This document shows, in pieces, positions 3,129 through 6,591 of a DNA stretch of 21,528 nucleotides (its first letter is position 1; every line of letters begins with the position of its first letter). The notes beneath the pieces were generated by a model. The model saw nothing but the letters and a program-made list of their open reading frames with translations. It was not told the DNA's origin and did not search any database. The stretch is taken from the IMG/VR virus record IMGVR_UViG_2526164668_000015; one strand, 5' to 3'. The position numbers and the translations under genes are program-made. The DNA comes from a virus. Lineage: Duplodnaviria > Heunggongvirae > Uroviricota > Caudoviricetes.

Positions 3129-3497
3129 TCAGGCGGCCTTGATAGTCATATCATCTGAATCAAATATTCCTGATGTATCGATATCGGTAATTCTTATTCC
3201 TTCACTACCATCCATTGGAGGCCATCCTTCCTGACCATTTCCATCATTCCAGTCGAACTCACACACAACACCATATGCATTTAAGTCGCTTGAAATTGCT
3301 ATAAGCAGAGCATGTTGCGCCAGCATGATTAATACAGCATTTAATACAGAGCCGTGTTTATTGAGTCGGTATTCAGAGTCTGACCAGAAATTATTAATCT
3401 GGTGAAGTTTTTCCTCTGTCATTACGTCATGGTCGATTTCAATTTCTATTGATGCTTTCCAGTCGTAATCAATGATGTATTTTTTGATGTTTGACAT
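3129..3497 (-). CDS. ea10: Ea10 (lambda early protein, 122 aa)
   Basis: 122-aa ORF MSNIKKYIIDYDWKASIEIEIDHDVMTEEKLHQINNFWSDSEYR..., in the lambda position between cIII and the ral/sieB slot. Confidence 0.85.
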   Translation of the reverse strand: MSNIKKYIIDYDWKASIEIEIDHDVMTEEKLHQINNFWSDSEYRLNKHGSVLNAVLIMLAQHALLIAISSDLNAYGVVCEFDWNDGNGQEGWPPMDGSEGIRITDIDTSGIFDSDDMTIKAA

Positions 3498-3514
3498 CTG
3501 TTCATATCCTCACA

Positions 3515-3542
3515 GATAAAAAATCGCCCTCATCTTGGAGGG
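3515..3542 (-). terminator. putative intrinsic terminator (tL2-like) on the leftward transcript
   Basis: Minus-strand hairpin CCCTC-caagat-GAGGG followed by a U-run (plus strand ataaaaaatcgccctcatcttggaggg). Confidence 0.35.
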
Positions 3543-3685
3543 CAAAGAAGATTTCCAATAATCAGAACAAGTCGGCTCCTGTTTAGTTACGAGCGACATT
3601 GCTCCGTGTATTCACTCGTTGGAATGAATACACAGCGCTGTGTTTATTCTGTTGTTTGCGTGAAAATGAAATCCGCCTGAGCGGG

Positions 3686-4567
3686 TTATGACCACTTTTT
3701 GTTTGGGTTTCGTTGGTGAGCGTGGTTTACAGGATTATTTGATATACCCCATAACTCTGACTCGCTTATCTCTACACGAGAGAAAGACCTGCTTTCTTTC
3801 AGTTCTTTTATAAACCTAGAACCTAAGATGACATCTATTGTACCAGAAAGTTCTTGTAAAAGATCTATGTTTTTTCTGAGGAAGAAAATATCTTCTTTAT
3901 ATTTAATTTTTACATAGAATTTATTCTGTATTTTTAATATATCAAAGCATGGCAGATATCTATATCCCTCATATTTTCGCCACTGCTTAACAATTATAAC
4001 ATCTTTTTCATTTACTGCATTAATCAGCCCAAGACCAAGTACAGGTATGAATATTCTATTGTCTGCCGAAAGCGTACAATTATCACCACCAGGCAAATAT
4101 GTATAAATCATGTCGGAATTTTTATACGCATCAACGAATGCACGTAAGAAGCGTACATATTTTTGCCATCCGTTTATACCGAATTTACCATATAAGTATT
4201 CTTTATTTGTTAGAAGAAAACTATTTGTATCAGGATCCTTATCTACAGACCTGTCGATAAGATCTCCAACTACGTTTACAAAGTCAAAGACAGAGTTTAA
4301 TAAGAACAATTGTCTTTCAGTAGGGCGAATTTCAATTATGTAGCCAGGATGAAGACGATATTGCATCTGCTTACGAAGTATACCGAACGCTTGGGTCCGA
4401 GCATCTGAAAGCAACTTCTTGTCGCCATCGCCGTGAGCATTGTTTCTAATAAAACTGATATAATTTGCTAATTTTTCAGCCTCTTTTTTGTGTTTTTTTC
4501 GCTCTGATGCTGAGTCTATTGGTTTTGGTATGGACTTGTAATCAATCTTCTTCATTACGTACCTCAT
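3686..4567 (-). CDS. hypothetical 293-aa protein (289 aa if ATG 4555), AT-rich moron replacing ral/sieB; candidate exclusion or defence gene
   Basis: Continuous ORF in a segment of about 33 percent GC, flanked by lambda backbone of about 50 percent GC. Its start ATG (4565-4567) overlaps the N stop as ATGA; an alternative ATG at 4555 has a better SD (gaggt). No recognisable motif (no Walker A, no clear PD-ExK, no HEPN). It sits in the lambda slot that holds ral and sieB. Confidence 0.7.
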   Translation of the reverse strand: MRYVMKKIDYKSIPKPIDSASERKKHKKEAEKLANYISFIRNNAHGDGDKKLLSDARTQAFGILRKQMQYRLHPGYIIEIRPTERQLFLLNSVFDFVNVVGDLIDRSVDKDPDTNSFLLTNKEYLYGKFGINGWQKYVRFLRAFVDAYKNSDMIYTYLPGGDNCTLSADNRIFIPVLGLGLINAVNEKDVIIVKQWRKYEGYRYLPCFDILKIQNKFYVKIKYKEDIFFLRKNIDLLQELSGTIDVILGSRFIKELKESRSFSRVEISESELWGISNNPVNHAHQRNPNKKWS

Positions 4568-4887
4568 GCCAATGGAATGGATTCCCCTTTAACCTTTTGT
4601 CTTCCTTGACAAGTTATACCGAACTCACCTGGCTTGCTATACCAAACTCGATGATTCTTGCGCTCAATACGTTGCAGGTTGCTTTCAATCTGTTCGTGGT
4701 ATTCAGCCAGCACCGTAAGGTCTATCGGATTCAGTGCGCTTTCTACTCGTGATTTCGGTTTGCGATTCAGCGAGAGAATAGGGCGGTTAACTGGTTTAGC
4801 GCTTACCCCAACCAACAGGGGATTTGCTGCTTTCCATTGAGCCTGTTTCTCTGCGCGACGTTCGCGGCGGCGTGTTTGTGCATCCAT
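4564..4887 (-). CDS. N: N transcription antiterminator (107 aa)
   Basis: MDAQTRRRERRAEKQAQWKAANPLLVGVSAKPVNRPILSLNRKPKSRVESALNPIDLTVLAEYHEQIESNLQRIERKNHRVWYSKPGEFGITCQGRQKVKGESIPLA, with ATG at 4885-4887. The track ORF is extended upstream artificially. Confidence 0.95.
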   Translation of the reverse strand: MDAQTRRRERRAEKQAQWKAANPLLVGVSAKPVNRPILSLNRKPKSRVESALNPIDLTVLAEYHEQIESNLQRIERKNHRVWYSKPGEFGITCQGRQKVKGESIPLA

Positions 4888-5042: not shown

Positions 5043-5072
5043 CTGCCCTTCTTCAGGGCTTAATTTTTAAGA
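5043..5072 (-). promoter_or_regulatory. nutL: nutL (boxB 5043-5059, boxA about 5062-5072)
   Basis: Reverse complement reads CGCTCTTAAAAATTAAGCCCTGAAGAAGGGCA, the lambda nutL boxA plus the boxB hairpin, between pL and N. Confidence 0.8.

Positions 5073-5238: not shown

Positions 5239-6591
<1,353 letters not shown>

Follow-up and report, generated by a model that had tools for sequence, protein, structure and literature searches.

The window analysed here, a 21,528-nucleotide stretch of a Caudoviricetes genome (IMG/VR record IMGVR_UViG_2526164668_000015), carries on its minus strand, directly behind a lambda-type N gene, a gene (3686..4555) whose 289-amino-acid product ends in the transcription-arrest peptide of the Nun protein of phage HK022. 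The body of this protein is modelled as the recognition lobe of TnpB/Cas12-type proteins, with the nuclease lobe missing. Comparison of sequences and a predicted structure incline us to regard the product as an arrest factor for transcription elongation, of the Nun type but with another targeting scaffold: the boxB-binding arginine-rich motif (ARM) of Nun would have given way to a TnpB-derived lobe. Its most likely biological role is exclusion of, or competition with, other phages.

The C-terminal Nun peptide and its gene

Residues 276-289 of the protein (VNHAHQRNPNKKWS; 3689..3730, minus strand) lie at its extreme C-terminus and are identical at 14 of 14 positions to residues 96-109 of HK022 Nun. 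The profile PHROG 5632 ('Nun-like transcription termination factor') matches only residues 274-293 of the 293-codon open reading frame (ORF) that contains the gene, at profile positions 93-112 of 112, and the sole significant match to a solved structure is chain N (Nun) of PDB entry 6ALG, residues 263-289 aligning with Nun 83-109. In that structure only Nun 87-109 is ordered, wedged in the active-site cleft of an E. coli elongation complex. The contact residues N97, H98, H100, R102, K106, K107 and W108 reach the beta' rudder, the RNA, the template DNA and the downstream DNA, an N103A mutant is near wild type, and removal of the last 13 residues abolishes both the activity of Nun and its binding to RNA polymerase (PMC5386594). 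The preliminary description, made from the sequence alone, had seen no recognisable motif in the protein; the last 14 residues are such a motif.

The tail positions N277, H278, H280, R282, K286, K287 and W288 are invariant in six diverged homologues (identity down to 38%), and they are exactly the known contact residues of Nun; the equivalents of Nun Q101, N103, P104 and N105 vary within the long family formed by the gene and its homologues. Every full-length homologue down to 38% identity keeps the tail, always at the extreme C-terminus. Because homologues at 38-68% identity encode it with different codons, the tail is ancestral and selected, and the idea of a recent graft was rejected. In the window, a 106-nt block (3619..3724, minus strand), which includes the last 13 codons of the gene, is 96% identical at the DNA level to the 3' end of HK022 nun and about 67 nt downstream of it, and thus marks a mosaic recombination joint within the tail codons.

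This joint could be read differently, the tail being a tolerated by-product of recombination on a protein whose core function has nothing to do with polymerase arrest, such as a DNA-binding regulator or an anti-defence protein, or the whole gene being a decayed remnant of TnpB or of an insertion sequence (IS). The 96% identity shows recombination to have occurred exactly at the tail, and the distant relatives described below work with a different tail. However, all full-length homologues, at identities as low as 38%, keep the Nun tail with diverged codons and invariant contacts, purifying selection acts on the whole length of the frame, and no RuvC remnants, IS ends or tnpA occur near the gene. 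We consider this explanation very improbable.

Further candidates for Nun- or N-like features were rejected or gave no match. The resemblance of SFSRVEISES to FPRDVEKIEDE, which would have extended the Nun homology beyond the tail, is at chance level: a hidden Markov model (HMM) made from the 43 residues that precede the tail gives tail-less Nun a score of -2.0, matched or bettered by 273 of 500 shuffled sequences. The N-terminal stretch KKHKKEAEKLANY, which resembles the ARM of lambda N (RRRERRAEKQAQW), has basic and aromatic residues that are not conserved in homologues; the basic stretch SERKKHKKEAEKLANY is likewise not conserved, the homologue P0003 having SERTKQDIAAKMLRNC. Pfam N36 and N_peptide do not match the 289-residue protein. 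A 96-amino-acid protein from one Escherichia coli contig (P0008) consists of the first 23 residues of Bet and the last 73 residues of the studied protein, including the Nun tail, and is presumably encoded by a prophage deletion derivative.

The minus-strand ORF at 3686-4567 comprises 293 stop-free codons, a run with a random chance of about 3e-10 at its composition, and the PHROG 12139 profile spans its residues 5-293 (E 8e-206). Its G+C content is 34.7% (34.6% for the 289-codon coding sequence) against 45.2% for the window and 48.8% for N. With four diverged homologues compared, the proportion of nonsynonymous differences (pN 0.19-0.41) is far under the saturated proportion of synonymous differences (pS 0.76-0.89), and the gene is therefore under purifying selection. 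The preliminary description had the AT-rich frame right, at about 33% G+C, and also its lambda flanks, but it missed the start codon as well as the motif. It took the ATG that overlaps the N stop codon as the start and proposed translational coupling through that overlap. The ATGA is literally present at 4564-4567 and the linkage to N is tight, but the true start is almost certainly the ATG at 4555-4553 (ORF residue M5), 12 nt downstream of the overlap. A GAGG Shine-Dalgarno sequence (4562..4565, minus strand), which overlaps the N stop TGA (4564-4566), precedes this ATG with a 6-nt spacer; the same ATG is the start in the PHROG profile, in the NCBI proteins and in the GenBank coding sequence of phage 434. 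The homologue at locus L007 has an in-frame TAA right after the overlapping ATG and the same Shine-Dalgarno arrangement as the window. With the start at 4555, the product has 289 amino acids (33.8 kDa, isoelectric point 9.5) and the coding sequence begins 8 nt past the N stop. Thus, the gene is tightly coupled to N through proximity and not through a start/stop overlap.

The protein body and its relatives

An AlphaFold model built on an alignment of 30 sequences reached a mean predicted local distance difference test score (pLDDT) of 83.8 and a predicted template modelling score of 0.79, whereas an earlier alignment of 4 sequences had given an unusable model (pLDDT 42.6). In the model, two N-terminal helices are followed by a strand (72-77), a helical bundle (80-145), a beta-rich unit (152-217), further helices (223-256) and a disordered tail. 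The N-terminal extension (residues 1-65; 4361..4555, minus strand) is basic (isoelectric point 10.0), is predicted to form two long helices and is specific to the Nun-tailed subfamily. The core (residues 66-222; 3890..4360, minus strand), made of the strand beta1, the bundle and the strands of the beta-rich unit, contains the most conserved motif of the family, C160-x-x-S163, which reads CTLS here and CSIS in the family consensus. Two helices (residues 223-257; 3785..3889, minus strand) end in the start of the invariant motif ESRSFSRVEISES (residues 254-266). They lead into a linker predicted to be disordered (residues 258-275; 3731..3784, minus strand; pLDDT <50); the model leaves residues 258-282 disordered, and the disordered C-terminus measures about 30 residues in all.

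Foldseek searches of this model against PDB and BFVD returned weak E-values, yet the TnpB/Cas12-type superfamily was enriched among the hits. As modelled, the core has the WED+REC topology of the TnpB/Cas12 N-terminal lobe and is devoid of the RuvC lobe, the WED strands being followed only by the two helices and the disordered tail. Pfam, NCBIfam and PADLOC gave no match for the protein, and for its relatives only one sub-threshold chance hit per library; a PDB sequence profile search found nothing for the core. The view that the N-to-ea10 slot holds a distinct AT-rich cargo gene is borne out, its body matching no annotated family.

Close homologues are rare, with only a few among 5.8 billion clustered proteins, and an HMMER scan of 1.84 billion representatives gave 24 matches. 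Among these are distant relatives of 213-326 amino acids, which share the core (about residues 73-225) and the subsequent S-(Y/F)-S-R-V-(D/E)-F motif, and end in GGLPSLGKRR in place of the Nun tail. A scan of GTDB representative genomes found no Nun-tailed relative. In four BREX (bacteriophage exclusion) operons the distant relatives sit between BrxC and PglX, another adjoins DISARM-like genes, and further ones stand alone in Dechloromonas and Burkholderia. The defence HMMs of PADLOC-DB match neither the window protein nor the relatives P0028, P0031 and P0032; the neighbours of the relatives that PADLOC recognises are BrxA, BrxC and PglX. Six loci (L009, L010, L011, L012, L014 and L017) carry, between brxC and pglX of a BREX operon, an uncharacterised conserved gene for a protein of 276-288 amino acids with the core fold family and the GGLPSLGKRR C-terminus. 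At L009-L012, the loci with enough sequence beyond it, PglX is followed by genes for proteins of 376 and 423 amino acids without a Pfam match (at L009 also without a PADLOC match), and an HSP70-like protein and a second PglX-like gene are also encoded downstream of PglX.

Position in the early-left operon and possible mode of action

The nun gene and the long gene are positional alternatives in lambdoid phages, forming a two-by-two pattern in which either follows put or N. In HK022, put precedes nun, while N precedes nun in PA28 and Stx1a phages (with a phage-21-type N) and in Hafnia phage Pocitis76. The long gene follows put at loci L005 (2802-3110) and L056 (3666-3973), which represent HK022-type phages without an N gene. 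There the leader between cI and the gene is nearly identical to the HK022 leader between cI and nun, and the long gene lies exactly in the nun slot; a 70-nt stretch of this leader is probably putL, Rfam having given no put family. N precedes the long gene in the window, at L007, L008, L054 and L058, and at others. The preliminary description had proposed looking for homologues in the same place in other lambdoid prophages, and the arrangement recurs: in 20 of 27 non-redundant contexts the gene is preceded, at a distance of 1-22 nt, by the end of an N-like ORF. A lambda-type ARM is present in 16 of these 20 N-like ORFs; the proposal that the long gene occurs solely with lambda-type N was rejected, since four contexts have other ARMs.

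A scan of IMG/VR for the tail motif yielded at least 120 loci, and among the matches listed the tail is found on only two scaffolds, short proteins and the long family. The short tail-bearing proteins (about 88-124 amino acids) carry at least eight different ARMs. Examples of such short Nun-like proteins are found at L066, L068, L076, L085, L090, L092, L143, L153, L165 and L167, with two in tandem at L085. With varied ARMs joined to the same tail, Nun would seem to represent not one HK022 peculiarity but a diverse group of exclusion factors that differ in RNA specificity. ORF43 of Pocitis76 (within 2240-2767 of L003) encodes a Nun-like protein of 88 amino acids and immediately follows the N gene of that phage. 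Its product has a lambda-N-like ARM, is 50% identical to lambda N over its first 52 residues (E 4e-15) and terminates with the Nun tail. The make-up of this protein suggests that Nun proteins consist of N-derived N-terminal halves and a portable tail.

If the long protein is a Nun-type arrest factor, its tail would enter the elongation complex as that of Nun does and block translocation. A tether of about 18 disordered residues would leave the TnpB-like lobe where the cleft opens, close to the upstream duplex and to the RNA exit channel. There the lobe would act as the ARM of Nun does and concentrate the tail locally on certain elongation complexes, which it would select through some nucleic-acid feature (DNA, nascent RNA or a hybrid) in the transcription unit of a competitor. 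Given that a lambda-type N and nutL are present alongside the gene, lambda boxB would not be its target. Early transcription of the phage itself carries the N modification or, in HK022-type phages, that of put RNA, and would for this reason probably escape arrest; polymerase modified by put overcomes Nun-dependent termination, and N lies at the entrance of the cleft, alongside the upstream DNA. In 434-type phages the protein would be expressed with N from pL, and in HK022-type phages expression would come from the context that expresses nun in lysogens. Of the functions proposed in the preliminary description (exclusion, defence or anti-restriction), exclusion or inter-phage competition is now the best supported, by the Nun peptide, the nun position, and the relatives in BREX operons and beside DISARM-like genes; restriction alleviation finds no such backing, as no ral-like feature is present.

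The lobe may instead confer only general affinity or stability, the protein being an abundant pL product that shuts off any unmodified elongation complex, whether of the host, of resident prophages or of co-infecting phages, with the phage's own N- or put-modified complexes immune. Nun alone arrests nut-less elongation complexes with a dissociation constant of about 300 nM and is toxic when overexpressed (PMC5386594). A general shut-off would also fit the constant position of the gene directly behind an antitermination device, N or put, the resistance of put-modified polymerase to Nun and the location of N at the cleft entrance, and no specific target element was found. However, a domain of about 270 residues under purifying selection exceeds the apparent need of a mere tether, and all the short tail-bearing proteins use a specific RNA-binding motif. 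In addition, HK022 nun mutants have no defect in lytic growth, which argues against a general need for such an activity, although this result concerns Nun itself. We regard a general shut-off as unlikely.

The tight translational link to N in 20 of the 27 contexts, the presence of terminators downstream of the gene and the failure to detect a lysogenic promoter in the window would also suit a protein that acts on its own phage. Such a protein would time or attenuate transcription from pL (or pR), or resolve conflicts between transcription and replication or between convergent transcription units, with the tail as a polymerase tether. We find self-regulation of this kind quite improbable: the gene is interchangeable in position with nun, which has no known role in HK022 growth or lysogeny, and relatives are found in defence islands. 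Moreover, most lambdoid phages with the same backbone lack the gene, and it occurs at full length in 83 of 5426 complete E. coli genomes (about 1.5%), a distribution that fits accessory cargo.

Several observations weigh against the proposal of a Nun-type arrest factor targeted by a TnpB-derived lobe. With an ISDra2 TnpB sequence checked against PDB, hhalign aligned residues 71-96 with TnpB 6-31 (26 columns, probability 1.2%, E 0.045), and Pfam OrfB_IS605 and OrfB_Zn_ribbon did not match the protein. The TnpB likeness is therefore one of fold only, and by sequence the protein falls outside the TnpB family. In Nun, H93 and R94 contact the upstream DNA and an R94A mutation weakens binding; the equivalents of Nun 87-95 are not conserved, the window protein having ELWGISNNP there, so that its affinity may be lower. 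The analysis revealed neither a candidate target nor a partner RNA, the non-coding DNA behind the gene being generic lambdoid backbone, and a literature search found no phenotype of phage 434 that maps to the gene. The defence-island context of the relatives is silent on the function of the Nun tail because their tail differs. Lastly, no promoter that would be active in lysogens was detected in 434-type phages, which weakens the case for classical prophage-encoded exclusion there.

The two kinds of tail allow a broader scenario, which we put forward tentatively. A TnpB/Cas12 recognition lobe may have lost its nuclease and been exapted to deliver, under the direction of sequence, C-terminal effector peptides that can be exchanged. 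The lambdoid version would carry the Nun peptide to elongation complexes engaged on particular foreign DNA or nascent RNA, perhaps aided by a bound RNA cofactor and potentially in a reprogrammable way, and in Betaproteobacteria the lobe would bear the GGLPSLGKRR tail in BREX operons.

Nun has hitherto been treated as a one-off, one small protein with one known target, lambda nut. The IMG/VR scan presents the arrest peptide as a portable module found on many ARMs and on a wholly different scaffold, about 270 residues long. Should the tail act as it does in Nun, this would be the first link found between a TnpB/Cas12-type recognition lobe and the direct jamming of RNA polymerase, and the gene gives a concrete handle on recognition by a nuclease-less TnpB lobe. 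The possible resistance of N- or put-modified complexes to the tail provides a testable rationale for self-immunity, and an uncharacterised gene conserved between brxC and pglX is flagged in some BREX operons. The presence of the gene in the classic phage 434 and in complete E. coli genomes makes experiments easy to set up.

Prophage context and comparison with known systems

The window is a phage 434-type lambdoid prophage, with the 434 repressor gene (5640-6272, minus strand) and 434 cro. Its early-left operon has the order pL, nutL, N, studied gene, ea10 (DUF2528), cIII, kil, gam, bet, exo. The boxB of nutL (GCCCTGAAGAAGGGC; 5045..5059, minus strand) lies in the pL leader, upstream of N and the studied gene. 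The lambda-type N (4564..4887, minus strand; 107 amino acids, ARM MDAQTRRRERRAEKQAQW, Pfam N36) is co-transcribed with the studied gene and ends 8 nt before its start; ea10/DUF2528 (3129-3497) lies downstream. The lambda backbone is thus kept on both sides, as the preliminary description had stated, with N upstream and ea10/DUF2528, cIII and kil downstream, and neither ral nor sieB is present in the N-to-ea10 slot of the window. An ORF at 5239-5643 (minus strand), which shares sequence with the 3' end of cI, is the counterpart of 434 'Hex', listed in the GenBank record as a repressor-protection protein; the mechanical ORF reaches 5715, and the record calls the start codon of the paper it cites (PMID 23303392) wrong.

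The gene CPT_434_48 of phage 434 (OL657226, OL657227) is the same gene, with 99.7% identity. It already bears the GenBank label 'Nun C-terminal peptide-containing protein' and had therefore not escaped notice altogether. The phage 434 genome announcement does not discuss the gene, and a literature search found no functional study of it and no paper joining Nun with TnpB. The RefSeq name of the full-length gene in the complete E. coli genomes is 'hypothetical protein'. Truncated or frameshifted copies with 141-242 amino acids open exist at L091, L114, L125 and in the E. coli hit H88, and the gene is thus subject to occasional decay in some prophages.

Downstream of the gene, the 3498-3700 region is a strongly structured intergenic RNA (fold z -4.7). 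The 160 nt that follow the gene are generic lambdoid backbone, shared by 329 phage records that mostly lack the gene, and a gene-specific RNA in 3498-3700 was rejected on this ground. An intrinsic terminator (3518..3545, minus strand) is likewise backbone sequence common to many lambdoid phages without the gene, and a perfect 9-bp hairpin, GTGTATTCA...TGAATACAC (3606-3633, minus strand), occurs upstream of ea10 in hundreds of lambdoid phages. A Rfam scan of L005, L007 and L002 (HK022) gave one chance-level hit only. No minus-strand promoter-like site was found in the window upstream of the gene, and the total of promoter-like sites detected falls below chance expectation.

Among known systems, lambda ral and sieB occupy the same pL-transcribed accessory slot between N and ea10. 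The studied protein has no sequence or predicted structural relationship to their products and no sign of restriction alleviation or of membrane-linked abortive infection. With HK022 Nun, the C-terminal 14 residues are identical, including every residue known to touch the beta' rudder, the RNA, the template DNA and the downstream DNA; the tail lies within a disordered segment, and the gene has the same place in a lambdoid early-left operon, either first behind pL-put or right behind N. However, the studied protein has 289 amino acids compared with about 110 for Nun (about 90-125 in the Nun family), lacks a conserved ARM and any N or Nun homology outside the tail, and, coexisting with a lambda-type N and nutL, is not aimed at lambda boxB as Nun is.

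With TnpB, Cas12f, Cas12n and Fanzor, the protein shares a predicted WED+REC N-terminal lobe, and its first strand-helix motif (IEIRPTERQ...L...F) matches the register of TnpB residues 6-31. In contrast to these proteins it lacks RuvC, the zinc finger and TNB, gives no match to Pfam OrfB_IS605, has a shorter REC bundle and bears the Nun tail where they have the nuclease lobe. The analysis found neither IS ends nor tnpA nor an omega-RNA-like element for the gene, although a partner RNA may be encoded elsewhere. The TnpB-like nuclease-dead repressors (TldRs) embody a shared concept, a TnpB scaffold exapted to interfere with transcription and not to cut DNA. TldRs retain the RuvC lobe in inactivated form together with a guide RNA, and act as a DNA-bound roadblock to initiation or elongation, whereas the studied protein lacks any RuvC lobe and carries instead a Nun-type peptide that is predicted to enter the polymerase.

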